Positions 1-62,030 of a stretch of 64,000 nt of DNA are shown in pieces. The translations under genes were made by a program, and so were the position numbers. Positions within the stretch are counted from its first letter, which is position 1. Each line of letters opens with the position of its first letter. Source of the DNA: a virus (lineage: Duplodnaviria; Caudoviricetes); IMG/VR virus record IMGVR_UViG_2920693923_000001, positions 32,001 through 96,000 of that record; one strand, 5' to 3'. Below the pieces are notes generated by a model that was not told the origin of the DNA, searched no databases, and saw nothing but the letters and a program-made list of their open reading frames with translations.

Positions 1-530
1 AAATTAGATGTTTTCTTAGCTAATTCAGAAATAGAAGAATCTACTCTGTTGATCATAGTTAAAAGAGGTGAGAACTCATCACCATCTCCAACATCAGATA
101 TAACTTTCCGCATTGAACTAAGATGAGATTCCATTTTCTCGAATAAATTAATAACTGTCTTGAGTTGTTTTTCGTCAACTATTGAATTACCAATACCTTT
201 TCCATTACCTAAACCAGTTCCAAACGCCTTACCAGAAGCAAGAGATTTAACAACCTCTACCAACTTATCCAAACTTTTAACAGTCTCATCTATTCCTTGA
301 TCTTTTATCTGCACAACAAATTCTTGTGAAGATAATTGCTTTCTATATTTTTGAATCACCTTTTCGAATTCTGCTTGATTCTTTGAATTAGAAAAGTCAA
401 AATACATTTCAAGTTTATTATTTTGTAACTCTTTTTGTCCTTCGGATAACCCTTTTAATATCTGAGCAAGCAAATCAGATTTATCCAGCACAATACTGGC
501 GGTCATCGAAGCAGCTACATTATCTGGCAT
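1..530 (-). CDS. N-terminus of a long tail gene, probably tape measure protein (runs off window)
   Basis: ATG at 530 after GGAGG; open frame MPDNVAASMTASIVLDKSDLL... continues to base 1; helical composition; lies downstream of tail genes. Confidence 0.5.
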   Translation of the reverse strand, partial: MPDNVAASMTASIVLDKSDLLAQILKGLSEGQKELQNNKLEMYFDFSNSKNQAEFEKVIQKYRKQLSSQEFVVQIKDQGIDETVKSLDKLVEVVKSLASGKAFGTGLGNGKGIGNSIVDEKQLKTVINLFEKMESHLSSMRKVISDVGDGDEFSPLLTMINRVDSSISELAKKTSN

Positions 531-23243: not shown

Positions 23244-23259
23244 TGAATAATATATTATT

Positions 23260-38845: not shown

Positions 38846-38909
38846 AGAACAAACGTTTTATAAAATCATCCTGGACTCTCAGAGCAGAACATACTCGAAC
38901 AAGTGTTTG
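38846..38909. promoter_or_regulatory. two Gram-positive LexA (SOS)-like boxes
   Basis: AGAAC-AAAC-GTTTT (38846) and CGAAC-AAGT-GTTTG (38896) versus consensus CGAAC-N4-GTTCG. Confidence 0.55.
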
Positions 38910-38943
38910 AATTATAATTTTATCGTATTTTTAAAATTTATTA

Positions 38944-41672: not shown

Positions 41673-42608
41673 GTGAATATTATGTGTAAGAGAGTTTATT
41701 TAACAGCAAAAGAGGCAGAAATGGAAATGCAGGAATTACGGAATAAAGAAGGTTTTACTGGAAAAATGGAAACCGATTATATTTCACGAATGATTAAGGA
41801 TGCAAAGCGAAACTCCATGATCGGAGACAAGCTTCAGCTTGTAGTAGATCCAATGTATATCCACATTCCTGAATGGCAGAGAAGATTAAAGCTTGCTAGA
41901 GCATACACAATCGGAAACACATATAACAAGTATAAATGGGATGTTCCGAAGGTACTATTCCACAAAGGCAGACTGTATGTTATTGATGGTCAGCACAGAA
42001 TATATGGCGCATTTAAAGCAAAAATGGATGCTGTTGTCGTAGAAATCATGGAATGTTCACTTGAAGAAGCGATTGATTTGTTTATTAATCAGTCCCAAGA
42101 TAGAGCAAAAATGCAGCCAATGGACATTTATAAAGCAGCTATTGCAGGCGGCAAAATAGATTATGTTAAATTACAGGAAATTTGTCACAGAAATAATGTT
42201 GCAATAAAGGGAGATGATGATAATGAAAACACAGTAGGGACGCTTACATCTATCTCAGATGGTGTTAAATTATCAAAGACAAATCCTGAATTATTGAATG
42301 CAATGCTTGTATTACTTGGAAAACTCGGTTGGAATGGATATGCAGATAGTTATAATGGAAAGGCATATACAGCGAAGATAATTCGTGCATTAAAGGCATT
42401 ATATGCTTATTGCGAAGGTAGAACAGATGAAATGGAACAGGCGTTAATTGAAAGATGTAAAGGAACAGAGTTCTTCGTGGATAATATTATGGATAAAACA
42501 CAAGCGCAGATATTTGATTATTTATCAGACATTGTGAGATATGAGATGGAGAACCCATTTAAACAGGAAAAACCAAAGCGTAAAACAAGAAAAATACAGG
42601 CAATGTAA
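41673..42608 (+). CDS. ParB/Srx-fold protein with DGQHR motif (DUF6551-like)
   Basis: WQR, LYVIDGQHRI, LFINQ motifs. Confidence 0.75.
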   Translation: MNIMCKRVYLTAKEAEMEMQELRNKEGFTGKMETDYISRMIKDAKRNSMIGDKLQLVVDPMYIHIPEWQRRLKLARAYTIGNTYNKYKWDVPKVLFHKGRLYVIDGQHRIYGAFKAKMDAVVVEIMECSLEEAIDLFINQSQDRAKMQPMDIYKAAIAGGKIDYVKLQEICHRNNVAIKGDDDNENTVGTLTSISDGVKLSKTNPELLNAMLVLLGKLGWNGYADSYNGKAYTAKIIRALKALYAYCEGRTDEMEQALIERCKGTEFFVDNIMDKTQAQIFDYLSDIVRYEMENPFKQEKPKRKTRKIQAM

Positions 42609-42631
42609 AAGAGAATAAACAACAGAAGGGA

Positions 42632-42838
42632 GTGATATTTATGGGATCTATGTATAGAAAGACAAAACAGATGCGTGATTTTGAACCTATTCTTAAACGG
42701 AATGGGTTCAGATATTTGCGAAGTCACGGAAGCCATTTTACATACATAAATACAGAAACGCATAAGAGAATTACAATTAACAAAGATCTCAATCGGATGG
42801 TGGCAGAACGATTGATGAAGGAATACGACTTAATATAG
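42632..42838 (+). CDS. hicA: HicA-family mRNA interferase (no adjacent HicB)
   Basis: ILKRNGF..RSHGSHFTY dsRBD-like HicA signature. Confidence 0.8.
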   Translation: MIFMGSMYRKTKQMRDFEPILKRNGFRYLRSHGSHFTYINTETHKRITINKDLNRMVAERLMKEYDLI

Positions 42839-43118: not shown

Positions 43119-43322
43119 AGCAGAAAGAAAGGATGGTTATTTTATGAATCCAGATTATGAACAAATTAAACATATAGCGTTAGAGAATGTAATGCAGAAA
43201 AAGAACAGAAAGGCAGTATATGATTTTCAGTGCCTCCACGCAGGAAAACATTGCAATAGAAAACGGAACAGAAAATAAAAGAGAATAAATGGATATTTCA
43301 TAGTGAAAGGCAGGTAAAAGTT

Positions 43323-45133
43323 ATGTATAAATGGATGTATGACAGAGTTGTAACGGAACATAGTAAAAAGTCAAAAGAAGAACTTGCACAGGAGATTATG
43401 GCATTAGAAAAAATTGAGTGCTCTGATAGATGCTTTGCAAATGAATGCCAGGCAGGGGCGACTATCTATAATATCAATGAGTTATTTTCAGCATTGAAAG
43501 AACTGAAAGCGGGATTTACATATGAAAAAGCTGCTAAAGTTTATGAGTTGATGGAATCAGCGGAGAGTAGTTGGAATTATATTAAAAGAGAAATTTCTGC
43601 AATGAATGATAATTCAAGATGTAATAAGGTATTAGAAGATTTTAAAAACAAAGTTGCCAACGCAACTGATAGTAATGATAGTATCTGAAATGCGTGTTTC
43701 ATATGGAAAGGAGAAAATAAAATGAATGAATCATTATTAGCATTATTGAAAAAAGAGGATGGTCTTGTAAGAGATGTACGGTTAAATAAGGAAACTTATG
43801 AGATGTTGAGAGATAAAAATAAGCATCTTGCATCTGAATATATGGGAAAACTAGAAGAGTCTAAAGAGGTGCTTTTGGAGTGTCGAAAAGAAATCTCGCA
43901 GTATTTGGATTTTTTGGAGGTTTTAAAAGAGAGCTAAATTCGCATTTCAAAGGAAAGGAGCAAATTATGAATAGATACTTAGTTGTGTGGTTAAGAGAAG
44001 GCAGAGAGAATGTTGATGTCATTGATAATGCTATCACTCCGCATGAAGCAGCTAATAAGGTAAGAGAAGTGCATGTAAATGCTAACGTAGTAGCAGTAGG
44101 CATTATGTTAGACAACGAACAGTGGAATTACTTGTAGTAGTTGAAACTAAGATTTACAGGGAAAAGGAGTGATAATATGTGGAATACACCACATTCAAAA
44201 ACAGGATGGAATTTAGGAACAGAAGATGAATCTATAGAATATTTTACATTAAATGGTGTAACTTGTTATCATGATTTATTAATAGATAAATATTATGCTT
44301 TTCTTGGAATAGCAGGTGATAGAAAAGTAGAATTTGAAACTATAAAAGATTTACAAAATGGAGTGAATTGGCATCCAATGAGTGTGAATTATAAGAAGGA
44401 GTGAAGGCATATGAATATTAAAGAACAAAAGGCAGAAGCGCGAGACAGAAACGATTTAATAGATCACTTAATCAAGCTCATTGAATCAGATGATAAGCGG
44501 TATTCGTTTGAGTGGTCATGTGGTAATGCAATGGAAATTTTTGATAAAGAAAAGGAAGTCGGATATGTGTTACACATTGATAAGATTGAATATGATGTAG
44601 ATGGAAATGCAACTAATTTATAACGATTGGAGTGATTAAGATAAATAATAAACCATGTGCAATTGCAGTACGAATTTATGATGAAAATGGAATTACAAAG
44701 GCAGATGTAAAAACTTCTCCATGTGATGGTTTGAGAACAGAAACAATTATCTGGACTAAACTAGATGAGCGAGAGCGGTTTTATTATAATGGGTATACGT
44801 TGTATTATGATGAACGAATCAAAAATACAAAACCTTTTGCAGAAATTAAATAATAACGCAAATCAAAGGCAGTTAGGAGAATAAATACCTAGCTGCCTAT
44901 TTTATTACAAGAAAGCAAGGTTGATTATGATGAAAAAATTTAGAAGTGCAGAAATGCAAACCGCATATAAAAATGGTGGATATAGAGAACAGTTTGCAAT
45001 GGTGAACGGAAATAAAGCAGAAATATATGTAAATGGACATAAATGTTTTAAGTTTACATATTCATCACGGAAAGAGTATCAGGATGCAAATGGAGCTACA
45101 TATGACACAGTAACAAAAAGTTGGATTGATTAG
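43323..45133 (+). other. cluster of about seven small hypothetical early genes
   Basis: ORFs 43323-43688, 43722-43937, ~43967-44137, ~44177-44404, 44411-44623, 44632-44853 and 44921-45133, each with an SD. Confidence 0.65.
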
Positions 45134-45142
45134 AAAGGCAGG

Positions 45143-46867
45143 TTGATATATATGGGTAATTTGAAAAAATTCGTAGGAGATTATGCGTATTCTTATATTA
45201 AAAACATTGCAGTAGATCAAGAGAAACTTCGTAAAGCATTAGTAACACCACAGAATGCCAGGAATGTGTTTTCTGAATTGGACGAGTTCCAGATAAAGTC
45301 CATCTGTGCTGAAATAAGTGCAAATGATACCTTTGGAACAATAAGGGAAACTACGCAGGAAGAAATCATTGAAGATTTTAAGAAGGTTGGATATGACACT
45401 GTAATTTTTGATGATGAAGAGAAAATAGCAGAATGCAAAAAGTATTATGCAGCAGGAGAAGTAATTTGCACTTATAATAATCTTTCTGGTCGTATGAGTC
45501 AGTATCATATGTTGGTTGCAATTAAGAAAGATATTGACAAAATACAGAGAAGTAAAACTCCACAAAGGGAAGATGAATATGGTACATCTATTCTTAATAT
45601 TCAGATAGCAAAAAACGGAAGTCATATGTCTATTAAAAATCGCTATAATCACACTGTAAATGAATGCGATAGTACACTTAATAATAATCTGGATTTGTTA
45701 GTTCCTGGATTACAGGCAAAGGTACTTGGATATTATAACATAGCTTCTCTTAATAAGAATAAAACCTATTATAGAAACATTGCTAAAATAAACGGAGTTT
45801 ATCTAAAATGTGTCGCAGAAGTTGAAAATGTGTATTTTGGCAACTTTGTTCTTGATAGTAAAAACGGAGTAAGATTTGCAGACAACGGAAGATATTATGT
45901 GAATACTGATCGTGATAATCTTTGCGTTCTTGATTTTCATGATAAAAAAGTAATCAAACTTTTCAATGAAAGAAATCAAATTAGTAAAGGAACTTTGTTG
46001 ACAAGAGCAATGAAAGAGAATTTGTTACATAGTGGCAATAAAGAATGTATAGATGAACTCAATATTGTTTTTGACAATGCTTTGAAAGAGTTATTACAGT
46101 GTAGAAGAAAGGCATTACAATTCCTTGCTTGTTGTTATGGTTACGATTTTCAAAAGCCATTCAAGGTAACTGGTTTACTTGGAAAATTTACAGCTAATAG
46201 TATTAAAAAAATAACAGGAAGCAATAACGGAATATTATTAGTCTGTAAGGGAACGGAGGTTCGTTGTGTTGAATTAAACACAGGGAAGTTTAAAGTAGAA
46301 GTGCCAAGAGACAAATATAAATATTCAATTGATGATTATTATGCAAAATATAACTTTGAAGAAGATAGAAAAAGCGGAAAACTTGGAGTGTTTATCATTC
46401 AGCAAGATGCAAAATATAAAAGGAAAATAAAAAGAACTTCTAGTTCTTACTATTGTTATAACAATCGCAGCTCAGATGAATTTGATAAAAGTGGTTGTAA
46501 TATCACAGAAGCAAGACAAGCGTTAAAATATCGTCTCAATACTTATAAGGCAGATAAGCGAAAAAGAGAGGTTGATTCGATTAGTTACGAAGCAGATCTG
46601 AAAGAGATTAAGGAAATGTTTCAGACATTAAAAGAAAAGCTTCTTGTTAAGTTAAGCGAGGCAAAAACTAGCAAAGACTATAAAAATATTGAGAACATAT
46701 TTGATTATAGTTTTGCATGGATGGTAAGTGATATAGAGAAATTCGAGAAGAAAGTCACGCAAAATAATTTCCGTACTATAGAAGAAGCAACTGATAGTAT
46801 TAAAAGTTTAAAGGAACAAATTGAAGTGAAAATAAGAAAGATAAACGGGAAAGAGGAGGAATATTGA
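45143..46867 (+). CDS. large hypothetical protein (574 aa) with C-terminal coiled coil
   Basis: long ORF; no motif recognised. Confidence 0.75.
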   Translation: MIYMGNLKKFVGDYAYSYIKNIAVDQEKLRKALVTPQNARNVFSELDEFQIKSICAEISANDTFGTIRETTQEEIIEDFKKVGYDTVIFDDEEKIAECKKYYAAGEVICTYNNLSGRMSQYHMLVAIKKDIDKIQRSKTPQREDEYGTSILNIQIAKNGSHMSIKNRYNHTVNECDSTLNNNLDLLVPGLQAKVLGYYNIASLNKNKTYYRNIAKINGVYLKCVAEVENVYFGNFVLDSKNGVRFADNGRYYVNTDRDNLCVLDFHDKKVIKLFNERNQISKGTLLTRAMKENLLHSGNKECIDELNIVFDNALKELLQCRRKALQFLACCYGYDFQKPFKVTGLLGKFTANSIKKITGSNNGILLVCKGTEVRCVELNTGKFKVEVPRDKYKYSIDDYYAKYNFEEDRKSGKLGVFIIQQDAKYKRKIKRTSSSYYCYNNRSSDEFDKSGCNITEARQALKYRLNTYKADKRKREVDSISYEADLKEIKEMFQTLKEKLLVKLSEAKTSKDYKNIENIFDYSFAWMVSDIEKFEKKVTQNNFRTIEEATDSIKSLKEQIEVKIRKINGKEEEY

Positions 46868-46868
46868 T

Positions 46869-49341
46869 ATGCTGAAAATTGAAATTAAAACAGGTGGTGC
46901 AGCTTATAGAAATGAAGATGGCGAACTTGACAGAAGTGCATATGAGTTAAGGCGAAATTTAAAAGAAATTGAAGAAAAACTTGAATACGGATATCAAGCT
47001 GGTTACATAATGGATATCAACGGAAATAAAGTTGGTAATTGGACACTTGAAGATTAGCAGGAAATTGTAATTTCAGGAGGTAATAAACATGGCAGAAAGA
47101 TACATAAAAGAGTATGCAAATGATTGTAAGAGAAAAATTGAAGAAAATAATCTAATTAGGAGTAATTTAAAAAATAAGATAATTGCAAAAATCAATAAGG
47201 CTGTAAAGCTAAGGGATAAAGAGCTGATTACAGCAGATGAAGCGATTAAAATAATATTGGAACGATTTGAGGCTTAATACAGAGAATAATAAGGCAGACG
47301 CAAACAAATGTGTCTGTCTTATTTTATTGGAAAGGAGAATGTGAAATGAAACAGAATCAGGTTTGCTATTACATTGAAGATAGTCAGTTTGCAATGTATG
47401 TATCATATGGAATATATGAGTATAAAACAATGTGTACTCACAAAGTATCACGGTTGAAAGCACCAGAAATCAGATTAATAAATGGAGTCCCATTTGATGA
47501 TTTCCAGTCAGAAACGGAATTTAAGAAAGTTCCTAAAGGATGGACTTATAGCACAGATTTATATACAGTCACAGAGGATCTGGAAAAGAAAAAGAAAATT
47601 AATGTTGCAATGAAAGGCAGATACATCAAAAATCCTTCAGATATTCAGTGGTTATTTGATAATGGTTATCTTGTAAAAATGGAAGATGTAGAACCTATTA
47701 TTGAACCTGAGTTTGATCATAATACATATAGACTTGTAAAAAAATATCCTGCATGGACACAGTGTTATGGAAGTCATAATGATGCATATCCAAATGAAGT
47801 GTTCGAGACTTATGAGGCTGCTGAAAAGCGAATGGATGAAATTAAGGAAAATAGGCATAGAAAAGCGGTTGAATGTGCATTATTAGACTTTTATGAGAAT
47901 TTAGAATGGGCATTAGAAAAATATGAAGCTGAACATGGTGGAAGAGAAATTGAAAAAATAAGGCAGAAAATTTTAGCAAGACCACATTTAGATGACATTA
48001 TGTTTAGATACTACAAGGGAGAAATTCTTGTCGTATCAAGGGAAGCACATAGAAAAGACACACATATTGAATGGGAAAAGATAGCATAGAAAGTGAGGTT
48101 GATTGATATGTTGGAAAGTTATGTTATGGAAAGTGCAGATTATGCAAAGATTAAGAAATTAATGACACTACACAATATGGAAACATTTTGGGATGACGTT
48201 AGAAAATTCACAAAGAATGTGAGATCGGATCATAGTTTAGGTAGATGGCAGATATTATCAGAAGCGAGATATGGTGAATTAATGCAAGCGAAACGTAGTT
48301 TTTATGAAGATTAAAATGAGGTGATTGATAATGATATGTGAAATAAGCAAGAAAATATTAAATGAAGTATATGGTGGAGATACAAAAGAATCAAGAGAAA
48401 AAGCGATTAAAGATGGATATTTTATGGAATGGACAAAAGAAAGAATTAAAAATGCATTTAAAGCAGGAAATGGAACAGAAAAGGATTTAAAAAGATATAT
48501 GAATGATAATAAACAATATTGTGTATTTGTAGAAATTTAAACCCAGTTGATAGAACTGTTTCTTGAAAAGAAAGTGAGGTACAAAATATGAAAACAATAA
48601 TTAATAGAAGCGAATGTAAACCATTAAGTGACAACATTGAAGGTAAGTTGGTAGTAATTAAACCAGATTTTTTCAAACCAGAATTTAGAGAAGCAAAATA
48701 TCAGATTGTACTTGCAACTGGAGGTTTTGGTTGTGATGCAAATAAGATGGGAAATGCGGTATATATAGAAGAAGTTCATACTGATAATCCAGAGCATTAC
48801 AGACAGGAAAGATACAACCTTATTGGTGAACCAACAGAAGAGATTATTAAGGAATGGAAATCAATGTATGGTGAATTTAATGAAAAAGTACAGAAAGCAT
48901 TGGAGGTGTAGGAATTATGATGACAAGAGAAAGATTTGCGGAGACAAACTGGAAAATGAGTTATGAGGAATATCAGAAATGCTATTGTCCTGAATGTAAA
49001 AAAGAAGAATGTCCACACAGAGGAGCAATAAGAAGAGTACCTGAAATTGATGGTGGACTTGGTTTATGTCCTAATCTGAAGGGAGAGTGATTAAAATGGT
49101 AGTAGAACGTAGATGTATTAATCTTTATTCTGATATGAATCCGTGGATGAATTTAGTTTTATTGGTAAATGATGAAGATTTTGATAAGGCAAAAGAAGTA
49201 ACAGAAAAAGCCTTTGATGATTTTTGGAATGATCCAAAAGTTGAAGAAGAATGTTGGTCTTATGGAGATTGGATTGGATGGAAACTGAAAGAAGTAGGTA
49301 TCGAATATGATATGTATTTTAGAGATGGAAAGGATGATTAA
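46869..49341 (+). other. cluster of small hypothetical early genes, including a ~250-aa ORF (47346-48089)
   Basis: co-oriented ORFs with SD sequences. Confidence 0.65.
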
Positions 49342-49537
49342 AATGTGCAAACATAAACCGAAGAATCTAAGAGAATTTGAACCGATTCTTAAGGCAAATG
49401 GCTATCACGAAATTAGAAGTCGTGGTAGTCATTTTATTTATGGAAATGGAAAGAATCAGATTACAGTGAACAAGGATTTGAATAAGATGGTTCAGTTACG
49501 GTTGATTAAAGAGAATAACTTAATGGAGGTGAAATAA
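49342..49537 (+). CDS. hicA: second HicA-family protein (no adjacent HicB)
   Basis: REFEPILKANGY..RSRGSHFIY...ITVNKDLNKMV; clear paralog of 42632-42838. Confidence 0.8.
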
Positions 49538-52500
49538 ATGGAACTACGTGGCGTAATTGTGGATGAATGTGGAACTATTAAAAGATATTTCAGTGATTAT
49601 TCTGAAACCGAAAATGAAAAATATTTAGAAGATCATCCTGAGTATCATGTATCTGTTATAGAAAGCGAGGAATAGGTATGACAAGCACAATAACGAGAGA
49701 TTTTGTAGTTAAAAACGGAATCGCAAGCTTCCCGATGAAAGAATATCCAAACTATTGCGGGATTGAAGATATTGGATATATTTCACACGGAGAATGGGCA
49801 GACGCAGAACTTGAATACAAGGGAAGATTGTTCAACGAAAATGTGGTGTCAGATGTAATGTGGGAAAGATTTATTGAAGAATTTCCTGATAAAGATGGAG
49901 ATTACGAAGTCTTTAATCAGTATATATATGACAATAAGGACGAAGTGTATGAGTTATTAGAAGATTGGAGTGATGAAAATGAAGAATAATGATTATCCAA
50001 TATATTTTAAAAGTAAAGGTAATGATATATATGCAAGCTATGATGGTGTGCGATGGTTTTGGTATGGAAATATGGAATGTTGTTAGTAAGAAATAGCAAT
50101 TTCAAATGGAAAGGATGGTTGATTTATTATGGCAAAATTTAATGTTAGATATTATGAATGTTATGAAAGATATTATGAAGTAGAGGCAAACAGTAAAGAA
50201 GAAGCAGAAGAAAAGTTAATTGATGCTATTAAGGAAGGTAGAGAAAATGCACCAGATCAGTGTTATGACAGTGACGCAGAAGCTACGGAAATGGAGGAAT
50301 AGATATGGAAAATATTACAGTAAGAGAATGGGTAAATAAATTTAATAATAAAGAATTTGAGTCTAAAAACAGAGCAGTTCAGTGTAATGCAGGTTGGTAT
50401 GATTGGTTTTGTTCAGATGATGCGTTGGCTGGAAGATTAAAGAAAATGGGAAACATTATAAAGGATATTAAGAATGATTACATTCTTGATAATTTCAGAG
50501 TGTGGTTTAAAAATAATTGTCCTTGTTCTTATCCGCTATATGATGATTTTAGATTTGAGCCAATAATGGAAAACGGAGAAGATTCGGACGATACAATTCG
50601 TGACCAACTATATTTTGGAGTGCAATGCGGACATCCATTTGGAAGTGACTATATGTATGAAGTTTTTACAGCAAGAAATGGATATAGAACTGAGTTTAAA
50701 TGCAAAAATAAAAGAGAAGTTCTAAATGTAATTGAACAACTTGCAGAAGATTTTCAGAAAGAAATAGAGGTGTGAGTTGCGATAAAGAGTTAGAAATGGA
50801 GTGATGATATATGGATTTTACAGAATATATTGAAAAACAAAAGAAAAATTCACATAAAGATATTTTATCAGATATTTGTTTACTGTTACATAATTGTGCA
50901 GAATGTAAAGAATGCAATCCATCAGACATTTTGTATAGAGATGTTCAAAAAGCGACACAGAGTTGTTTTTATTTAGAACCATATGATAGCAAAACTAATA
51001 TTAAACTATTAGATATTGCAAAGAAACATAATTATCATGCAGGTTTTGTTAATTGGAAAGATGGAATGATGATTAAATTTTGGAGATGAATCAAGAGTTT
51101 CATTGAAAGAATGGAGGAAATGATATGACCTATTTAGAATTAGCAAGAAAAATAAAGAGTGCATATAAGGAATTAAAGCAAGATGAAGTATATAAATTTT
51201 TCAATGTCATATGGAATAATGACCTTGGAGAGTCAGAAATTACAGTTGAAAATGATGCTGGATTTAGAGCAATTATTATTGGTAATACAAGTAGTGTAAA
51301 AAAATCAAGAGGTTACATGTATTTGTTTTATACCAATGATGACACAGGATCATTTCCGACTATTAAAGAAATAGAACACAGATTAAAAGTAGTTGCAAAT
51401 CAAGAAATTTTAACAGATAAAAATGCGGATTATTTTGATTGGAAACAGTATGGTTCTTTAGAAGAACAGAGAAAATATTTTTCAGAAATAATTTTAAATA
51501 CAATGAAACGATGATTTACTGTGAAATTGGAGGGAATATTATGTTGAATATAGTTGTTATTAATTGTGATAGGAAATATGTGGAATATGAATGGGATTCA
51601 AAGAAAGCATTTGTACAGGATATGCAAAGTGATAATGAAAATATTCCAATGCTCGATGATCCTTTGGCAGAAGTCAACACACAAGACAATAATTTACAGT
51701 TATGGTGGAGAAATACAGATGGAATGACTGTAGACGATTTGTTAGAAGAATGTAAACAGGAATTAAATTAGATAGGAGTGATAAAATGGAATGTCCGATA
51801 TGCAAAAATAAACTAGGCTTTAATTGTGGAACATGTATTGAGTGTGGATATAATTATCTGAATGGAAAGTTTGAACATATAAGAGTTTATGTTGATGATT
51901 TAACAAATATTGTTCCGTTGGATATTTTAGAAGAATTGATAGAAGAACATAAAAAATTTAAGAAAAGATGAAACGGAAATTTATTTGGAGGTGATGCAAT
52001 GAAAATGAATATCCATATATCAGAAACGAAGAATGAATCACTCGCATATAAGCTAATCAGAAGAAAGGCAAGAAACATGTTAGAACCTTGTACGGATCAG
52101 GAACTTGGACAATATGTGCGAGGTATAGTTGACATGCAAAGCGAAATCTATGGAGAAGGAATTAGTCAGCAATCAATGAAATAATGTAGTTAATAACCTG
52201 TAGGCAACAATTGCTCGCAGGTTTTATTATTAAGGAGGAATTTATATGTTAGATATTACAGTCTTAAATAATATGGAATACGCAGATGCGGAAAATTTTG
52301 TACATGACAACGGCTATATTAATACTATCGGAGCGGATGAAGTTGCAGCTAGTAAATCCGATAGGGTAGCAGATACATACTATGAGTTATATGATAACGA
52401 TGGAAACATGGTTGATATGATAAGTTTCTATCAGTATTATAACGGCGAAAACATAAATAACCCTGATCTGAACGCAGAAATTGTAGAACAGGGATGGGAA

Positions 52501-54538
52501 AGAGTCGCCTAGTATGGTATAATAGTTACATATATAAGAGAAAGGAGGGAGACAAATGGAAGTTGATGCAATGACAAAATACAAAGGTTGGTATACGAAA
52601 GCATTAAATGCTTCAGAAAGACATGATGTGAATGATTTCTTGAATTATACATTAACGATTTATAATGGGACATCATTAAATGCACCAGACGACTTGTTAA
52701 AGTTGACTGAAGATGATGCAGATGTAAGCAAAGATGAAAAGCATAAAATCATGGTCAAGACATTATTAACATTACAGAATCAGCTAAAGACAAGAAAATA
52801 TTTATAATTTTTTAACTAATAGTTTAATAGGCACATATTGGAATGTAAATATTAATCTTTTATTGAAAAATGTTTTTAATTAATAGATACATTTTGGAAC
52901 GTATAATTTAAAGCTGTATATAAAGAAAAAGGAGATGATGATATGGACAGTCTAGCATTGATTATTACAATCGCTCTTATTTGTATAGGACGCAAGATAT
53001 ACATTGAAGCAAAAGTAAATAGCTATGATCTTGATAAGGTGTCAATCGGAAAAATGGCTATGGATGCTGGTAAAAGCCCATCACAGATAAAAAGTAAGAT
53101 GGTATCTGGTGGTTACAACAAAGATAGTAAATGGAAAATATAGGAGAACAAATGGAGATTATTAATCCTTATGAGGTATATGGATGTGATGGAACGGAAA
53201 TGGTGGTTGTATCTAAGGTAGAACGTAATATAACAGATGATATTGTATTATTGATGCAGCTCGAAAATCTTGATCGGATCTATCATAAACAGAAAACGGA
53301 AATCGGTCGATACTTACGGTATTGTACAACGGCAGAAATAATGAAAATTAATAAAGCAGTAAACAGAATATTGGGATGAAAGGGTGGTAGATATTATGAA
53401 TAATACTATTATATTATTAGAGAGTAAAGCAAATTTAACACGGAGGGAATATCAAAAATTTGCAAAGAGAGATACAATTAGGAGGTAAAGACTTATGAAT
53501 GATTTTACAATATATAGGAATTATGGAGTACTTGGGGCTGAAAAAAGAAATATATATACATATGGAGCACCGCATCTTAGAGGAGTCTGTAATGATGAGT
53601 TAAAAGTTAAGTTACCTGATGATTGCAATTGGAAGTTATGTGAGAATAATTTTGGTCAGACTATGATAGAAGCCCCTTGGGGTTGGACATATAATCTCAA
53701 TGAAGTGTTACAGGGAAATGAAAATCCATGTTTGTATGCTTTGGATAAAGATCAGAAGGCACATAGAGTTGAATTAGTAATTATTGAAGAGAAATAGAGA
53801 ATATAAAAGTAGAGCAAGCCATCGGAAATTAATCTGATGGCTTTTATCAAAAAAGGAAGGTAATTATTATGGAAGAACTTATATGTGGAGTAATATGGTT
53901 TGCATTATGTTTTTTTGCTATATGGATTACAAGAGATAAGGACACAATAGAGGAAAATAGAAAAAGACAATTCCAAGAACAGGTTCACGAGTTGTATAAA
54001 ATTGGTGATGTGGAAGATGTTATTTTAAAAGAAAAGAGGTAATCATTATGGCGCAGTTAATCGGATGTTTAGTAGCAATGTATTTATGTATTTATCTTCC
54101 TTGGAAAGCGAACCAAAGGGAAGAATCTCGTAAGAGACAAGATATGTATAATAACTTAAACAAGAAGTCTGTAGATGAAATGGGAAAGTGGAGAAAATAA
54201 GAAGGGTGGTGTATTATATGAAAAGAGAAGATTTTAAGAAGATTATTAAACTGCGTAGTTTCTGGAAAATTGATAAACGAAAAGGCAATTATGAATTACC
54301 TAACGGAAAGCATTTGTCAGATTATGTATCAGATCTTATTGAGTCTCAAATGAAACTCGACACTTTAGGCATTAGAAAAAATGGGGATTTATGTTTTGTT
54401 TCTGGTGGCACATGGAACGTTGAAACAAAAGAATTTGAAGACTATACTCTTATGCCATCATTTAAAAATAATGAGATGTGTTCATATGATGAAATGCAAA
54501 AAAGGATTAATTGTTTAATTCGTGAATTATTATATTAA
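49538..54538 (+). other. cluster of about 18 small hypothetical early genes
   Basis: co-oriented short ORFs with SD sequences. Confidence 0.65.
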
Positions 54539-54938
54539 TTCTATTGTCAATAGCATTGATAACCTTATCAGATAATCCATTCCATTGTGGTTTCATTGAA
54601 AAATATTCAACCATTATAATAGAAGCGAAAGCGTTTGCATCAACTTCTGCAATTTGAAGGTTATATTCTTCGATAGATGAACATTTGTTAGATGGTTTAT
54701 ATCCTGATAAATAGAATTCATCATCAGTTTGGTATTGATAAATATGACGAAGTTCATGAGCAATGGAAAATATATAATCTGTATTTGGTTTGTCTATTTT
54801 AGTTAAATAAATTATATTAACAGTTGGTTCACATTGAGCCAATGTAGTTTTAGTATGGAAATGAGAAGTATCATATGAAATTTTTGGTACTTCTATTTTA
54901 AGTAACTCACAAATATCTGTTATAAATTCTTCTATCAT
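54507..54938 (-). CDS. Zn metallopeptidase, ImmA/IrrE-like (HExxH)
   Basis: IAHELRH and EVDANAFA motifs; own RBS and TATACT -10; counter-oriented. Confidence 0.75.
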   Translation of the reverse strand: MIEEFITDICELLKIEVPKISYDTSHFHTKTTLAQCEPTVNIIYLTKIDKPNTDYIFSIAHELRHIYQYQTDDEFYLSGYKPSNKCSSIEEYNLQIAEVDANAFASIIMVEYFSMKPQWNGLSDKVINAIDNRINIIIHELNN

Positions 54939-54995
54939 GGTTAATTCCTCCGATAGAGGATAGTATAACAGAATATTAAAAGAAAGAAAAGGTGG

Positions 54996-57381
54996 TTGAT
55001 GAATATGTTCGGTGGACTGTTAGCGTTCTTAGGTATTTATGGAGCAAGTGCTGCAAAGGCAGCTAAAGATAACTATGATATGAAGAAAACTACTCGTACA
55101 GTTGATGAAAACGGAAATGTTCATTATATGGATAGACTTTGCAATGATTACATCAATGGAGAGCAAGTAAAGAGAGTTGAAACAACAGACAGGAACGGAG
55201 TTAAATTATATTCTACAGTTGGTGTTAATAGCAGTAAGGTGTACGACACTTCTTATGGAAGAGGTACACAGCAGTTATTTGCAATGAGTGAACATGATAA
55301 ACAGGAAAATCTAAAATACGGAAAAAATGTATATAGTCAATACAATCCATATTTCGGAAAAACTGTTACAACTGAAATTAGTTCAGGCAGAACAATTACT
55401 TGTTTGTTTAGTGGGAAGAATCAAAAGACTGGCAAAGAGTTCTATAGAGTATGGTATTTCCGTCCAGAATGTCAAGGAAAGCTTGATTATAATACGACTG
55501 TTGATGGCGATATGGGAATTGAAATTACAAAAGAAGAATTTAATAAGTTAAATTTTGGAGCTTTGACATGTACATGTATGCCAAGTGATTATGATGTAGT
55601 CCATGCATTATGGGGTGATAGGTAATGAATAAACAGAGAAGAGAAAAGATAAGGCAACTCAAAACTCAAATTGATTTGATTAAAACTGATTTGAAGAAAG
55701 TTTCAAGCGAGTTGTCTTCTATATTAAGTGAAGAACAGGATACATTCGATAACATGCCGGAAGGATTACAAAGTAGTTATAGAGGAATGTGTTCTGAAGA
55801 TGCTATTGATAATATGGAAGGAGCGAACGAGAAACTTGATGAAGTGATTGAGTTGTTGAATGATATTGTGTAGAATGGAAACAAGTAAATAATAGTTTCA
55901 TTTGAAGATTGGAGGTAAAAAATATATGAAATATGGAGATATAGTTGTATATAAAAATCAGATTGGAACAGTAGTAAAAAGCGAAAATGATTTTAAGTTC
56001 CATCCGTGTAATTATGGAAGTTGCTATTTTAGCGAGTTAAATACAATTACAGACGAGGATGTAAGAGAAGCAACACATGATGAAAAGTTGGAACTGATAG
56101 AAAAAGAATTTACATGGGGCAATGTGATTAAAATACATTACATTGGAGAATATCAGATTGTAGAGTATATTGATAAAAGAGATAAGAAAACATTTTATCA
56201 CGGATACATTAACTACAGCGATATAAATCGTTCGTACTCATCTCTTGATTCTGCATTGATTGGATGTATTGGATACAAACGTGAGGGTGGAAATGGTAAA
56301 GCTGCAATGTATTTTGATAAAATGATTGGTTTGGAATAAATTTATTAGAAGATTGGAGAATAAAAATATGATTTGTTTAGATTGCGGAAATATGGATATT
56401 CGATATGATGAAAAAGAGAAATCATATCATTGTAATAATTGTGGTTCGAGAAATATTGGTACAAGAAAAGAAGGGTGTAAATATATGCTAGGAAATGGAT
56501 TGTGTGGTAAAAATCCTGCATGTACGTCATCTGGAAAATGTGAAGCACCATGTAGCTATTATGAAAAATAGTAGGAAACCAGAAATGCAAATTAGCCAGG
56601 ATGAGTTTTTAGAGTTGTGTAAGGAAGCTGGAATTAAATAGATTGGAGAGTGAATGACATGTTATATACAATAGTACATACAGTAATTAATAATAGAGGA
56701 GAACACCCAGAAGCAAACGCAAGAGTGCTTGGAATATTTTCTGATAGAGAAACCGCAATCCAAGAAGCTGAGAAATGGATTGACAACACAAAAACATCTG
56801 ATGTAAATATTAAGAGAGTAACGGAAACTGAATGGTATTTCTGGTATGAAGAAAACGGAAATACTTATGGTGGATATGTTAATGTGTATGGAAATGAATT
56901 AGATAAGAAAGTAGTGTAGAAAGGAGCATGATTGTATGAATAGCAATTTTAGGGAATATAAAGGATATGTAATAAAAAAGATAACTATTCACACAGTAAA
57001 TGGTGCTTGTCTTGCATCATATGAAGTATATGCAAATAAATATAAAGATAGATTATGGATCGGAGATAAATTGAAAGATGCAAAAGCATGGATTGACAAT
57101 AACGGAAATAAATTAGATGAATTTTAACAAACAAGTCTTATTAGAAAGGAGAAAATATTATGACGAATTATGAATTGATTAAGAACATGAGTATTGAAGA
57201 TATGGCAAAGATGAATGTAAGAGCTTTTCATTATATGGGTGGATATAGAGCACAGACTGATTTTTATACAACGGATCAGCACATATTTGATACAAGAGAA
57301 GAAGCAGAGAATTATGAGTTGGAATGGTTGAAGTCGAATGAAGATATTGATACATTCAATACAATTACTTTAAAAAAATAA
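54996..57381 (+). other. cluster of hypothetical genes (209, 82, ~137, ~67, 89, 63 and 73 aa)
   Basis: co-oriented ORFs with SD sequences. Confidence 0.65.
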
Positions 57382-57480
57382 CGATGTAATTAAATTTAAC
57401 TTTTATGTGCAATGTTAATACATTGTATTGACAAAGGCAAAAATGGAGAATATAATAATATTAAGAAAGGAGTGATATAT

Positions 57481-57798
57481 ATGGCAAATACAAATGTAAC
57501 AATGAGAATTGATGAAGCACTGAAAGTACAATTACAGGAACTGATGTCTAATCTTGGAATGGATATGACTACTTTCTTTACAATGGCTGCTAAACAAGCC
57601 GTAAGAGAACAGGCTTTACCATTTCATCCTGATATGAATACGGGAATATATGGTTTGAAATCATATCAGTTAGCAATGAAAAATACAAATTACAATAAAG
57701 AAGGGAAAGCAACAATATCTTCTGTTGACGATTGGGCAACCGAATCAGAATGGGATGATATGTTTGAGCAAATGAAAAAAGAAAGAGGTATCGAATAA
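57481..57798 (+). CDS. RelB/DinJ-family antitoxin
   Basis: NVTMRIDEALK...LGMDMTTFF.MAAKQAVREQALPF; promoter TTGACA/TATAAT at 57428-57456. Confidence 0.85.
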   Translation: MANTNVTMRIDEALKVQLQELMSNLGMDMTTFFTMAAKQAVREQALPFHPDMNTGIYGLKSYQLAMKNTNYNKEGKATISSVDDWATESEWDDMFEQMKKERGIE

Positions 57799-58133
57799 TG
57801 AACAAAGGAGAAGTGTGGTTTGTTGAATTTCCGTTAGAAGAAGATCCAAGTAGAATACTGAATAGACCTGTTGTTGTGCTTGATGAAAATTTACTTGGTG
57901 TATTATCTGTCAAGATAACAAAGCATAAGGCAAGAAAAGAAGATCCTTATGATACTCCTATTATCTATTGGGAAGAAGCGAGTTTGAGATTGGCTTCAAC
58001 TGCGAGAGTATCAAAAGTAACGCTACTTACAAAAGATAGCTTTATATTCAAAATCGGTGATTTACACAAAGATGATTTGAATAGAATTGAAAACATGTAT
58101 AGAAAATTTTTAGAAGATAATGGTGCTGTATAA
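57798..58133 (+). CDS. mazF: PemK/MazF-family endoribonuclease toxin
   Basis: GEVWFVEFP, RPVVV, KIT, IGDL...D; TAATG coupling to antitoxin. Confidence 0.85.
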   Translation: MNKGEVWFVEFPLEEDPSRILNRPVVVLDENLLGVLSVKITKHKARKEDPYDTPIIYWEEASLRLASTARVSKVTLLTKDSFIFKIGDLHKDDLNRIENMYRKFLEDNGAV

Positions 58134-58216
58134 ATTATAGCACCATTACTTATTAAAACAGAGAATATTAAAGTAACAAGAAACCAAGTTTTCTTGTGAC
58201 ATGGAGGTGTTTATAA

Positions 58217-59246
58217 TTGATATATCGTTTACCCAGAACGGAAATATTTAATAATTCAAACAAAATTATTTTTGAAAGTATAAATTTTGGAGAAATTATA
58301 ATAGATAAGACAAAGAAGATAATAATTAATAATGATGTGGATATTACTGACAAAATAGATAAACTATTTTGCGGAAACACATTAGATTATAATCTTGCGA
58401 CAGTTTTACATAAAATATTACATAACAAAATTGATGAAAAATGCCGAGATTATTTACGGAAATTTGATAAAGTAACAGTAAAATAAAAAAGAAATCTAAG
58501 TTTACTATGGAAGGAGAATATCATGATGAATAATTTTTTATTAACGTATTCTGTTCCAGATCTAAATGGAATGGGTAGAATAAACATGTACAAATGGTTT
58601 GAGAATGAAGACGAACTTCATAGTTTTGTAGTCAAAGAGAAAAATTTGTATCAAAATGGTTTTATAGTTAATGAAGCAATGGAGATTTTGAATGACCGTC
58701 AAATTTTTACTGGCGGTGATTTGCCAAAAAGAAATTGAAATTTAACTTTCCTTGGAGGTGATATGTCATAAAAGAACACAAAAAGCAATGGATACTCAAT
58801 TATATGTCACAACATAAAGATGAGTTTATTGATATTGTATCAGAGAATTTTGTAAACGCATATATAAATGAGTTTAATCCGAAAATAGTAGAATGGTATC
58901 TATATGGAGCGCCGAAAGTTCCTGAAATTGGTAGGCTGCTCGCAGAATTATACAAAGAGAATAAAGTAAGTAGATATAGGCATTATTGCGAATTTTGGCA
59001 AGACGGATATCCAAAATGGTTTTATATTTACTTTTTACAAGGATAAAAAGAAAGAATGATTTACTTGGAAGATTGGAAGAGGTGATATAGATGGATAGAA
59101 AACGAAATAATCCTACATGGTGTTGCGATCAAATTGAAGAGAAGATTAATGATTATAAAAGTTCACTTGCAGAAATTAAAGAAGAAGAAGTAAAAAGACA
59201 GTTGGAAATTGTAATTGATGATTTGGAAACAATTTTATATGGGTAG
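58217..59246 (+). other. four small hypothetical genes, each preceded by a boundary palindrome
   Basis: ORFs 58217-58486, 58523-58738, 58768-59046 and 59091-59246. Confidence 0.6.
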
Positions 59247-59265
59247 ATTGGAAGAGGTGATATGA

Positions 59266-59931
59266 ATGAACAAAAAAGAAGAATTAAAAAGATTAATTGA
59301 CAATCCTTTAAAACCAAATGCAGTTGAATGGGCAATGGATTCTGAAGATGTTTTGTCAAACATGAATTTACTTTCACCAGAAACTAAAAATTGCATTAAC
59401 ACGATAAAAGATCATGGAGGTGCATTTAAGCAATATAATGATGCTCTTGTTGCTATTTTAAAACGGGCGTATAAATCTATTGCAAATGTAATAACTCCTC
59501 CACCAATTAAGTCAAGACATCAAGTGTTTGTTGCAATGTGCTTTGATGATGAAAGAGAACGTCTGTATAAAGATGTTCTTACACCAATCGTACAAGCTGC
59601 TAATTATTCTATCGTCAAGGTGAACGACCAAGAATACGAAGGTTCTATTATTGGAAAAATTGTGGATGATATAACTGACTCAACTATTTTAATTGCCGAT
59701 CTTACAGGGAATCGTGGTGGAGTTTATTATGAGCTTGGTATTGCCAAAGGATTGCAGCTTTGTAATCATCCAATAAGAACTATACTTACTTGTGATAAAG
59801 CATTTTTTGATGATGAAAAGGTTCATTTTGATGTACAAGGTGATAATATTATTCTTTATACATCTGACGAGGATTACAAAGAAAAATTATCTCGCAGAAT
59901 TCAATCATATAAAAATGAAATGAATGGTTAA
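59266..59931 (+). CDS. nucleoside 2-deoxyribosyltransferase / TIR-like domain protein
   Basis: VFVAMCF, IADLTGNRGGVYYELGIA, HFDV motifs. Confidence 0.78.
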   Translation: MNKKEELKRLIDNPLKPNAVEWAMDSEDVLSNMNLLSPETKNCINTIKDHGGAFKQYNDALVAILKRAYKSIANVITPPPIKSRHQVFVAMCFDDERERLYKDVLTPIVQAANYSIVKVNDQEYEGSIIGKIVDDITDSTILIADLTGNRGGVYYELGIAKGLQLCNHPIRTILTCDKAFFDDEKVHFDVQGDNIILYTSDEDYKEKLSRRIQSYKNEMNG

Positions 59932-60601
59932 AATGACGATATCTTTGAAAAAGAGGGATATTATGTTTGATAATAAACAAGATAATAAAATTGAACTTAT
60001 AAGGAATTTATTCATTGCAGGTTCAAGTGCAATTCCTGTAGTTGGTGGTACTCTTTCTGTTTTACTAGATAAATATTTACCTAGTGCAATAGAGAAAAGA
60101 AGGACTGATTTCTTAAAACAATTAGAAATAGATTTTAATAAACTACCGTATGAAATAATTAATAGTTTGGAGTCAAATGAGTGTTTTTATTCTATTTTCT
60201 TAAAAGTTTTAAGTCAGGTAACATATGAACATAAAACAGAAAAAATAAATGCATTTAGAAATATCCTTATAAATTCAACGCTAATAACAGATATCGAATT
60301 CAATGAAGTGGAGTATTTTATTAAACTAATAAATTCTTTGTCGATAGATCAAATAAAAATATTACATCTATTTTATTTAAGAGATTATAAAAAGGAAATA
60401 GAATTTACTGATATTAACAAATTTATCGACAAGCATTGGAAAGTAGATCCATCATATCGTTGGAGTCTAGTAACAGAACTTATTAGAGATGGGCTTATTT
60501 CTTCTTCAATAGAACGGCAACATAAAAAAGGAAAGGGCATTCAATTATCAAAAATGGGAGAAGATTTTATAAATTACATATTTAACCCGGTTTCAATTTA
60601 A
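59924..60601 (+). CDS. hypothetical protein, Abi-alpha-like with C-terminal winged helix
   Basis: AIPVVGG N-terminal motif; L.RDGLI...LSKMGEDFI wHTH-like end; coupled to NDT gene. Confidence 0.5.
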   Translation: MVKMTISLKKRDIMFDNKQDNKIELIRNLFIAGSSAIPVVGGTLSVLLDKYLPSAIEKRRTDFLKQLEIDFNKLPYEIINSLESNECFYSIFLKVLSQVTYEHKTEKINAFRNILINSTLITDIEFNEVEYFIKLINSLSIDQIKILHLFYLRDYKKEIEFTDINKFIDKHWKVDPSYRWSLVTELIRDGLISSSIERQHKKGKGIQLSKMGEDFINYIFNPVSI

Positions 60602-60717
60602 TAAATATTTAGAAATGAAAAATTGCTTTCTTGTTGAAGGCGAATCAAATATAGAAATAAGCATTAGAAGCAGAAACAACTGCTTCTTTTTTATTGCAAA
60701 AAAATGAGGTGATAAAC

Positions 60718-60993
60718 ATGAAATGCAAAAATGGAAATCCAAAGCGAAGCAGTAGATTTATATGTTTGAAATGTATGCAACTTAATCCATGCGGATCAGG
60801 TATACAACGAGGTGGACATCAACGTGAAAAATATCATATTAAAGATTTGATGTGCTTATATTGTAAAGATGAGAAAGCAACTAAAAATATAGAAATCCGT
60901 TGGTGCGATAATTATGATGAAATTTATGCAAAAGCAATGGAAATCAGAGAAAAATATTATAAAGAAGATAATAATGATAGAAGGGTAGGTTGA
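60718..60993 (+). CDS. zinc-ribbon protein, ribosomal bL33-like
   Basis: FICLKC...KDLMCLYCK...NIEIR spacing resembles Zn-binding bL33. Confidence 0.4.
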   Translation: MKCKNGNPKRSSRFICLKCMQLNPCGSGIQRGGHQREKYHIKDLMCLYCKDEKATKNIEIRWCDNYDEIYAKAMEIREKYYKEDNNDRRVG

Positions 60994-62030
60994 TAAATAT
61001 GACACAGAGTAGAAATTATGCAAATAAGAAGGCAGGTTATGACACTGAGGGAGATCCATTGTGGAATATGGATGATATTAAGCGTTTAGTTGAATGGTTC
61101 GAGAAGCATAATGATTGGGATGGCTATTTAATAACGTTATTTGAGCTTTTGCTCGGTAGACGAATAGGTGATATCGTATGCTTGAGATGGTCTGACTTCT
61201 ACAAAAAAGATGGAAGAAAAGAAAATGAATTAAATCATTTTGTTGAGCAGAAAACAGGCAAAAATAATAAAATGCCGATCAGTAAAATGGTATTTGAGTC
61301 TATAGAAAATTATCTGGAGCATACCAAAATTGATCCTATGCAGCATTATGATGAGGAGATTTTCAAACATTCCGCTAAAGAAAAATGGAACAATATTGAA
61401 CATCAGTATTTTGCGAATGGGAAAAACACTATTACAAACGTTGATCATACAGTTGAAAATTGGATAAATATGTTCAATAGAGACTGGGGAGACAGAAGGA
61501 TTAAGAAAATTCAAGAAGGATTTAATGAACAATTAGGCAAACAATCGAGAAAATATGGTTGTTACGATGATATATTTGATTACATCCATTATGTAGTGGA
61601 ATTAAAGGACGCTATTAAATGGCATACGGATTCATATAGGAAGAGATTTAACCATGCAATTAGAGACATGAACCTGGATTATCGTGTAACAACACATGGC
61701 TTGCGTAAGAGCTTTGCATATTGGATTTATACAATGCACCAGTTTGATCCCAATTGTGTATATTCTATTCAGAAGATGTTTGGACATGTTAACGTATTAC
61801 AGACATATGACTATATGGGTGTTACCAAAATGAGAAACAGAAAATACATTGAAGATCATGGAGATTTTGTGCGGAATGTATTGGCAGGTAAGGGTGACGA
61901 AATTGTAAAGAATATGCCAGTCATTTCTTTAAAATCAGATGATTTTGGAAAGATTATTAGAATGCTTACTGATGATGTTGACAAATATCAAAAAGCAATT
62001 AATATGGCAAATGAAATGAGAGTTGTGTAA
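60990..62030 (+). CDS. tyrosine recombinase with intact catalytic residues
   Basis: LLGRRIGD (R), EQKTGK (K), THGLRKSF (HxxR), MFGH, TYDY (Y). Confidence 0.88.
   Translation: MINMTQSRNYANKKAGYDTEGDPLWNMDDIKRLVEWFEKHNDWDGYLITLFELLLGRRIGDIVCLRWSDFYKKDGRKENELNHFVEQKTGKNNKMPISKMVFESIENYLEHTKIDPMQHYDEEIFKHSAKEKWNNIEHQYFANGKNTITNVDHTVENWINMFNRDWGDRRIKKIQEGFNEQLGKQSRKYGCYDDIFDYIHYVVELKDAIKWHTDSYRKRFNHAIRDMNLDYRVTTHGLRKSFAYWIYTMHQFDPNCVYSIQKMFGHVNVLQTYDYMGVTKMRNRKYIEDHGDFVRNVLAGKGDEIVKNMPVISLKSDDFGKIIRMLTDDVDKYQKAINMANEMRVV

Follow-up and report, generated by a model that had tools for sequence, protein, structure and literature searches.

The window analysed here is a stretch of 64,000 nucleotides, bases 32001-96000 of a 159,903-bp IMG/VR provirus record (IMGVR_UViG_2920693923_000001; 33% G+C), and belongs to an SPbeta-like gut phage with a 160-kb genome. 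Junctions between the small genes of its plus-strand early block carry a short palindrome, GAAA-N6-TTTC, and comparison with relatives, SPbeta included, shows that this palindrome behaves as a recombination joint, marking where neighbouring genes were swapped. A first-pass annotation of the DNA had listed 18 such strings between 43286 and 62030 and proposed that they bound swappable gene units, with exchange breakpoints falling at them. All 18 strings are present, and the homology blocks of relatives bear out the proposal.

For the comparison, 27 related loci were fetched around a conserved gene encoding a 574-aa protein (window 45143-46867, in the middle of the array), giving 28 loci with this phage. 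Mosaicism in the block is extreme: of the 48 genes that the window has from 39.7 to 56.3 kb, the 574-aa protein gene alone is kept in 27/27 loci. The palindromes beside these genes, hereafter linkers, occur in 5-14 loci, though most of the genes have only 0-3 homologs. The window neighbours of the linkers with centres CAAGAG (12 sites in the 28 loci) and CGATGA (9 sites) have no homolog in any locus, and the linkers therefore outlast the genes that flank them.

Each linker position has its own six-base centre. Among 44,616 site pairs unrelated on both flanks (different loci, no shared 9-mer over 146 nt on either side), the centre is identical in 317, against 8 in a reversed-centre control. Identity in these 317 pairs is about 1.0 only at positions 1-12; outside them, position -2 has an A and a weak excess extends to +22. 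The order of some 12 centres is also kept in relatives, with 313 concordant and 4 discordant pairs; it runs TGGATA, TGCGTG, TTCGCA, CTAAGA, the 574-aa protein gene, TTGTAA, GAACTG, TAGCAA, AATTAG, CAAGAG, TGAGGA, CGATGA and CGGAAA, with inter-centre distances that differ by kilobases between relatives. The spacer had been described as always 6 bp long and variable in sequence. Its length is indeed constant and its sequence does vary between positions, but not freely, each position having a conserved centre of its own. That no centre is duplicated within a genome (0/2316 pairs) was discarded as evidence, random centres giving only about 1-2 such pairs. As a separate observation, three loci (L008, L009 and L016) carry the three-linker block TGCGTG-TTCGCA-CTAAGA 5-7 kb downstream of the 574-aa protein gene instead of 1-2 kb upstream; with its internal order preserved, the block has thus moved as a whole.

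Homology blocks start or stop at the outer edges of the sites. With all sites anchored and the test limited to junction pairs sharing one neighbour only, the whole 14-mer, centre included, was common both to pairs sharing the downstream gene and to those sharing the upstream gene, and identity dropped at -3..0 or 13..16, at most 3 bases from the site edge. All-against-all BLAST of the 28 loci placed 62-80 block ends at site edges, compared with 2-10 for decoy spacings, and the peaks lay at offsets -4..+1 and 12-14. The first-pass annotation had suggested looking for breakpoints inside the 6-bp core and for cores that travel with the adjacent gene. Breakpoints do fall at the sites, but at their outer edges, and there is no fixed travelling side: the whole 14-bp site stays with whichever neighbour is kept, upstream in some comparisons and downstream in others.

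SPbeta and its cultured relatives have the same system, with arms TAAAA-N6-TTTTA. The SPbeta early block holds 17 copies of TRAAA-N6-TTTYA, against 0-4 at other spacings. Across nine loci of the group (SPbeta, phi3T, Goe13, SPbetaL2/4/6/8, BUCT083 and SPR), block ends lie at site edges in 49/185 and 34/199 cases, compared with 0-7 for decoys of spacings 3, 4, 8 and 9, and 87 pairs with unrelated flanks have the same centre, against 0 in the control. No description of the linker element was found in the searchable SPbeta literature.

Junctions formed in the laboratory also map to linkers. Dragos et al. tabulated 16 SPbeta/phi3Ts junctions that arose in experimental evolution (Suppl. Table 1; bioRxiv 10.1101/2020.05.06.055103). 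Chromosome coordinates were converted to record coordinates by calibration on their junction 6, for which the phi3Ts end, 84628, and the length were reproduced. Re-read in this way, the "30 bp" junction 7 starts at base 69421 of the SPbeta record and ends at phi3Ts 62446; it is exactly the linker TAAAA-TGCATA-TTTTA, a 21-bp exact match of both parents in otherwise unrelated sequence. At the single "non-homologous" junction, the SPbeta end is inside the linker TAAAA-TATTCC-TTTTA, and a copy of this linker follows 15 nt after the phi3Ts end, which itself falls within a linker-like palindrome, in its left arm. As a second linker case it is suggestive only, the published coordinates misfitting a simple crossover to the base.

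The definition of the motif decides whether it stands out. The loose form first given, KAAA-N6-TTTH, is not enriched over the whole window (109 copies against 87 +/- 12 expected, with 109 reached in 4/100 shuffles). In the strict form, the expectation of a junction motif above background holds: GAAA-N6-TTTC is enriched only at spacing 6, with 22 copies in the whole genome against 2-14 at other spacings (mean about 8), and 106 copies in the 27 related loci against 14-42 (about 28). Between 39.0 and 62.1 kb of the window, GAAA-N6-TTT[AC] has 14 copies against 1-9. When up to one mismatch was allowed and a translation start was required after the site, the plus-strand block gave 35 copies at N6 and 6-13 at other spacings, apart from 23 at N7, a count inflated by T-run overlaps; by the same criterion the minus-strand late block has no N6 excess (6 against 3-11). 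The motif is thus confined to junctions of the plus-strand early block; beyond the window, further sites occur at genome 100-127 and 141-143 kb. In the window from 43 to 62 kb, about 60% of the junctions of 25-55 nt hold a site and 0 of the shorter ones do; the tightest junctions have no room for one, and longer junctions hold terminators, some with promoters.

The logo of the element is symmetric, A-W-GAAA-Y-N4-R-TTTC-W-T, or approximately TGAAA-N6-TTTCA, with a length of 14-18 bp, about 6 bp conserved per arm and no further conserved flank. Upstream regions aligned on the ribosome-binding site revealed no signal at a fixed distance, and a home-made expectation-maximization motif search returned mostly the ribosome-binding site itself. 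Sixteen of the 18 listed copies are good and two, at 48290 and 57391, are doubtful; the copies with an imperfect left arm, GATA at 48549 and GAAT at 51088, are genuine, since their centres recur between canonical arms in relatives. As had been noticed for five cases, the left arm supplies the stop codon of the upstream gene in at least five sites (43687, 43935, 51088, 51970 and 58737).

We favour, with a probability of roughly 0.55, an explanation in which position-specific linkers are exchanged by short-homology recombination with the help of a putative arm-binding factor. Each junction carries common arms (about TGAAA/TTTCA here, TAAAA/TTTTA in SPbeta) around a position-unique six-base centre, in a series whose order is kept. 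The data show crossovers within the 12 bases (AAA-centre-TTT) that same-centre linkers share, which suits both this reading and that of a dedicated enzyme. In a cell that contains two related genomes, such crossovers would swap the gene or genes between two linkers in register, changing gene content and leaving order, stop codon and ribosome-binding leader intact. Exchange would require identity of the centre and would be carried out by phage or host functions for short-homology recombination, at a site made recombinogenic by a factor that may bind the symmetric arms as a dimer on double-stranded DNA; the tyrosine recombinases of the window would not be the agents. Symmetry of the flanks without covariation is as expected of a duplex site bound by a dimer.

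Several findings suit a short-homology process. Most block ends lie in junctions without the motif, and other junction words serve as joints: a terminator module preceded by ACAGAGAATAATAA and a ribosome-binding/start word both occur in unrelated contexts, which fits exchange at short conserved junction signals. The genome also has a single open reading frame (ORF) with a match to AAA_24 (330 aa, genome 128895-129503, 49.5 bits), a family to which the Sak4-type phage annealing proteins belong, and its product is possibly a Sak4-like ATPase. A number of points weigh on the other side. Only about 8% of homology-block ends are at the motif, most being elsewhere in the junctions near the ribosome-binding site or start codon, and the related loci are non-independent samples. 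Identity over 12-21 bp is far below what RecA-type recombination usually needs, a search of the phage found no RecT or ERF gene, and no arm-binding protein was identified. Were identity alone enough, the common palindromic arms would not be needed. Lastly, only two laboratory junctions are involved, one of them being that with misfitting coordinates.

It is possible, though we hold it rather unlikely, that SPbeta-like phages instead run a dedicated position-specific exchange system, in which a putative protein reads the arms and joins only same-centre linkers, an ordered heterospecific series then swapping accessory slots in register. A recombinase, or a nuclease with a ligase, would bind the inverted arms, cut at the edges of the centre and finish only when centres match; the enzyme would be some conserved phage or host protein, or, in the version first put forward, the tyrosine recombinase at 60990-62030 or that at 25181-26218. 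Tyrosine recombinases require inverted arms around an overlap that is identical between the exchanged sites, and inverted arms, a 6-bp centre and centre identity in all exchanged pairs are what we see. All comparative joints share their centre, although short-homology recombination predicts the same as this overlap rule. The arms are common to all centre types and differ by lineage (TGAAA here, TAAAA in SPbeta), and the joints are very short, yet one or two of the 16 laboratory junctions map to them. Two or more tyrosine recombinases are present in every genome examined, as a rule with one of them inside the early array: this phage has three (genome 154061-155404; window 25181-26218 and 60990-62030) and the relatives G001-G006 have 2-5 each.

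No recombinase, however, co-varies with the motif. The 346-aa protein encoded at 60990-62030 is an accessory one, present in only 1/5 near-complete relatives, and neither it nor the 345-aa protein encoded at 25181-26218 holds up as the driver. In close relatives the latter is missing or replaced by 27-28% identical versions, and it is swapped even between genomes whose 574-aa protein gene is 95% identical. Several recombinases lie inside the early array and are 20-40% identical between types, the linker arms remaining unchanged meanwhile. None is an IntI, XerC or XerD equivalog: the three of this phage score 16.6, 16.5 and 57.5 bits against the NCBIfam integron integrase model TIGR02249 (cut-off 265), and the XerC and XerD models, scored on phage-encoded proteins, give 29-84 bits against cut-offs of 330-335. 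No serine recombinase was found. The conserved arms measure about 6 bp, compared with 11-13 bp in known core sites, and non-palindromic junction words also act as joints. In SPbeta, moreover, the recombinase-fold protein MrpR gives peaks in chromatin affinity purification sequencing (ChAP-seq) only at ten SPBRE promoters (PMC10516654). Linker exchange is probably not driven by the window's tyrosine recombinases. Some of the recombinases of this phage and its relatives may, on the model of SPbeta YopP and YopR, be lysogeny regulators and not recombinases. The 574-aa protein, which falls into more than 444 clusters in metagenomes, was tried as the enzyme and set aside: it has no match in Pfam, PHROG or GenBank phages, and its AlphaFold model (predicted local distance difference test score 47) is too poor to search.

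Less probable still is a purely regulatory duplex site, an operator at which a dimeric phage protein (for example a repressor, a nucleoid protein or one of the silencing or ParB-like type) would act on the early block, with no causal role in recombination. Viable breakpoints are bound to lie in the short gaps between genes, and their overlap with the site would be due solely to the site's occupying those gaps. The first-pass annotation had named a dimeric repressor or nucleoid binding site among its alternatives, and regulation may be a primary or a second role of the linkers. Symmetric half-sites one helical turn apart are typical of helix-turn-helix dimer operators, and the symmetric 4-6-4 layout without covariation has that geometry. 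The sites are restricted to the early block, which also contains a ParB-like gene (41673-42608). That gene is present in only 8/27 loci, for which reason its product was rejected as the binder. An operator explains neither why a non-consensus centre is conserved by position when both neighbours are replaced, nor why identity stops with base precision at the site edges and not at other points of the gap, and some 30 internal operon junctions just upstream of ribosome-binding sites would be an odd place for one.

A signal in the polycistronic early mRNA, whether a hairpin or a protein-binding site for processing, stability or translation of the next gene, had been listed as an alternative from the start and is very improbable. 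In its favour, every site is found on the coding strand of the block, after a stop codon and ahead of the following ribosome-binding site, and the arms pair in 59/70 minimum-energy folds. Against it, centre and flanks contain no base pair that covaries more than the composition of its columns predicts, and C-A is seen at positions 4/9 as often as T-A. The folds average only -2.6 kcal/mol (shuffles, -1.15), a single-stranded signal would have no need of symmetric flanks, and position-specific centres are left unexplained. Nor is the motif a terminator or a sigma-A promoter: it shows no association with promoter-like sites, and its hairpin has no T-run.

An operator of the SPbeta type was considered as well. 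SPBREs are likewise repeated intergenic elements in an SPbeta-like early region, and their binder MrpR/YopR, the master repressor, has a tyrosine-recombinase fold (PMC10516654). The SPBRE consensus that we derived from seven MrpR-bound SPbeta promoters, approximately ATACAAAAAATATGTAT, is unlike the motif; the linkers are a separate and more numerous element in SPbeta itself. The 346-aa recombinase has no sequence similarity to YopR/MrpR (BLASTP, PDB sequences) or to YopP. In SPbeta, one linker, TAAAA-TTGGAA-TTTTA (L001:20172-20187), stands immediately upstream of an SPBRE in the aimR promoter region.

The array had first been read as integron-like. The likeness is real as far as it goes, since both are same-strand arrays of small, mostly single-gene units with palindromic separators and a tyrosine recombinase gene nearby, and cassette exchange at the sites is upheld. 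The rest of the comparison fails. An integron attC site is an imperfect palindrome that spans about 57-141 bp and contains paired R/L boxes as well as a GTTRRRY core, whereas the element here measures 14-18 bp. The IntI signature is not matched (16.6 bits against a cut-off of 265); a cassette site has a fixed polarity and a single crossover point, whereas the linkers show no such polarity; and the recombinase beside an integron array is conserved, whereas the 346-aa gene is not. Nor is the block promoterless and read only from common promoters at 38.9-39.2 kb, as had been supposed, for inside it lie terminators, an extended -10 element and, at 57428-57456, the perfect sigma-A promoter TTGACA-17-TATAAT. 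This last belongs to a RelB/MazF-like pair (57481-58133), and therefore at least that unit is not promoterless.

The closest published parallel is the system of promoter-early stem-loop (PeSL) cassettes of T4-type phages (Arbiol et al. 2010, PMC2839356; Comeau et al. 2014, PMC4122927). There too, short repeats stand at the junctions of hyperplastic regions with many small genes of no assigned function, and, as here, the elements bound insertions, deletions and replacements between close relatives, recombination between them shuffling the modules. PeSLs, however, are composites of a sigma-70 promoter and a terminator stem-loop and recombine through their own longer homology (PMC2839356, PMC4122927). 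The element described here is a palindrome of 14-16 bp that is neither promoter nor terminator, with a position-specific six-base centre whose order is kept.

Two systems of recombinase sites also invite comparison. In Acinetobacter plasmids, the pdif sites and dif modules, served by the conserved XerC/XerD, have ATAA/TTAT as the inner bases of their 11-bp arms. On this description they resemble the linkers in having a 6-bp centre between inverted arms that flank swappable modules, with centres that differ between copies, and are unlike them in arm length (about 6 bp conserved here), in the bases themselves, in the position-tied centres of the linkers and in that no phage-encoded protein is a XerC/XerD equivalog. 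Heterospecific lox/FRT sites, the laboratory tool for recombinase-mediated cassette exchange, likewise combine common arms with a centre that must match, which allows in-register replacement of a cassette that two different sites flank. There, Cre or Flp is put to an engineered use and the arms measure 13 bp, whereas here the enzyme would be a putative one and comparative data suggest the need for matching centres.

Mosaicism at gene boundaries is mostly put down to random illegitimate recombination followed by selection, and Botstein's modular theory reportedly held that it arises via "linker" sequences. Here a whole phage family has explicit linkers that are very short, palindromic, position-specific, ordered and longer-lived than the genes they flank, and the family spans abundant human-gut phages and the genetically tractable SPbeta. 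Two published junctions from an evolution experiment map to linkers, and the mechanism is therefore directly testable in Bacillus subtilis. In the SPbeta group, the anti-defence genes Gad1 and Gad2 share their block with the variable slots, and the linkers may be a means of reshuffling counter-defence and other accessory genes. Annotated anti-Gabija Gad1/Gad2 genes are found in the same variable early block as TAAAA-N6-TTTTA linkers at L043:13132-14019, L044:12184-13386 and L045:15610-16503. If a dedicated system did exist, co-infecting phages could swap any accessory slot, anti-defence genes included, by a natural counterpart of recombinase-mediated cassette exchange distinct from integrons. 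For the annotation of metagenomic phages, the linkers are practical landmarks of cassette boundaries.

The copies of the window differ in how much the relatives say about them. The first, TAAA-TGGATA-TTTC at 43286-43299, lies at the junction of ORFs 43144-43278 and 43323-43688; its centre recurs in 7 related loci, in synteny about 1.7-2.3 kb upstream of the 574-aa protein gene and with differing neighbours. GAAA-TGCGTG-TTTC (43687-43700) overlaps the TGA stop of the upstream ORF with its left arm, and its centre is found at 9 sites in the 28 loci, in several unrelated contexts; a homology block of L004 covers exactly 43687-43953. The TAA of TAAA-TTCGCA-TTTC (43935-43948) is the stop of the upstream ORF, and this centre has 11 sites and flanking genes with 1 and 0 homologs in the 27 loci. 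GAAA-CTAAGA-TTTA (44143-44156), between two genes with 0 homologs, has a centre that occurs at 14 sites, in at least 10 different left and at least 9 different right contexts.

Beyond the 574-aa protein gene, GAAA-TTGTAA-TTTC (47061-47074) coincides with the end of an L003 homology block at 47073 and precedes a gene with 0 homologs; the 11 sites of its centre always lie 1.9-2.9 kb after the start of the 574-aa protein gene. The doubtful GAAA-CGTAGT-TTTT (48290-48303), with its TTTT arm, is within the 3' end of ORF 48108-48314, and its centre has no match in relatives. GATA-GAACTG-TTTC (48549-48562) has one arm mismatch, its centre having canonical GAAA arms in 7 relatives, and homology to L003 and L005 starts at 48569. 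At GAAA-TAGCAA-TTTC (50090-50103), flanked by genes with 1 and 0 homologs, L017 homology ends at 50108, and the centre has 13 sites. GAAT-CAAGAG-TTTC (51088-51101), again with one arm mismatch, overlaps a TGA stop with its left arm, and GAAA-CGATGA-TTTA (51505-51518) has the upstream ORF's stop in its centre; the genes on both sides of each have 0 homologs. L023 homology starts at 51968, just before GAAA-CGGAAA-TTTA (51970-51983; 5 sites), with a different upstream gene there. An end of L023 homology at 55916 lies past TAAA-TAATAG-TTTC (55886-55899), at the junction of ORFs 55625-55873 and 55926-56339.

The second doubtful copy, TAAA-TTTAAC-TTTT (57391-57404), has two arm mismatches and stands upstream of the RelB/MazF promoter. 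It has its centre, TTTAAC, in common with GAAA-TTTAAC-TTTC (58737-58750), a coincidence not beyond chance on its own. A second match overlaps the latter at 58731; the site and its downstream sequence, though not the upstream gene, are common to L023, whose homology starts at 58738. GAAA-CCAAGT-TTTC (58180-58193) has arms extended to 8 bp (ACAAGAAA / TTTCTTGT), a type also present outside the window at genome 101991, 109012 and 126957. The 14-mer GAAA-TCTAAG-TTTA (58491-58504) is found unchanged in L025 with both flanks unrelated. In the place of GAAA-GAATGA-TTTA (59050-59063), L023 has the centre AAATGA, with the downstream gene in common and the upstream gene not. The last copy, GAAA-AATTGC-TTTC (60617-60630), is followed not by a ribosome-binding site but by a terminator-like hairpin at 60666-60687; the fetched loci stop short of it.

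Other words recur at junctions. An unbiased 12-mer search for isolated joints was noisy, as diverged homologous genes passed the flank filter, and revealed them. A second module consists of the word (AC)AGAGAATAATAA right after the stop codon and then a terminator hairpin (window 47277-47346, 42608-42641 and 53797-53869; L003-L014); in many relatives the upstream genes that it follows are unrelated. A word like it, AGAGAATAT, precedes some linkers, at 58180 and at genome 126957. Where a junction is tight and has no palindrome, one upstream gene and several unrelated downstream genes have the ribosome-binding/stop/start word GAGGTTGATTGATATG in common (L002-L022, for example L005:14156 and L007:14042), the breakpoint being the start codon.

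The phage as a whole has an SPbeta-type layout, minus-strand late genes (window 1-38 kb) being followed by the long plus-strand block of small genes. The terminase and SPbeta YonF are 46% identical, and the genome also has a portal gene, an endolysin gene, six tRNAs and a YonO-like gene; megablast with the region as query found no match among GenBank phages. The YonO-like protein (869 aa, window 31606-34215, minus strand) matches phrog_8308 with an E value of 1e-88, and its gene holds the position of SPbeta yonO, which encodes the single-subunit RNA polymerase transcribing the late genes. ARAGORN predicts one of the six tRNAs, a tRNA-Tyr with the unusual anticodon ATA, on the minus strand at window 23172-23244, and two others are tRNA-Pro(TGG). 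At the divergence point of late and early genes, window 38509-38930 has no long ORF and keeps 72-84% nucleotide identity in at least 6 relatives with differing neighbour genes; this stretch may be a promoter/operator region or a small RNA.

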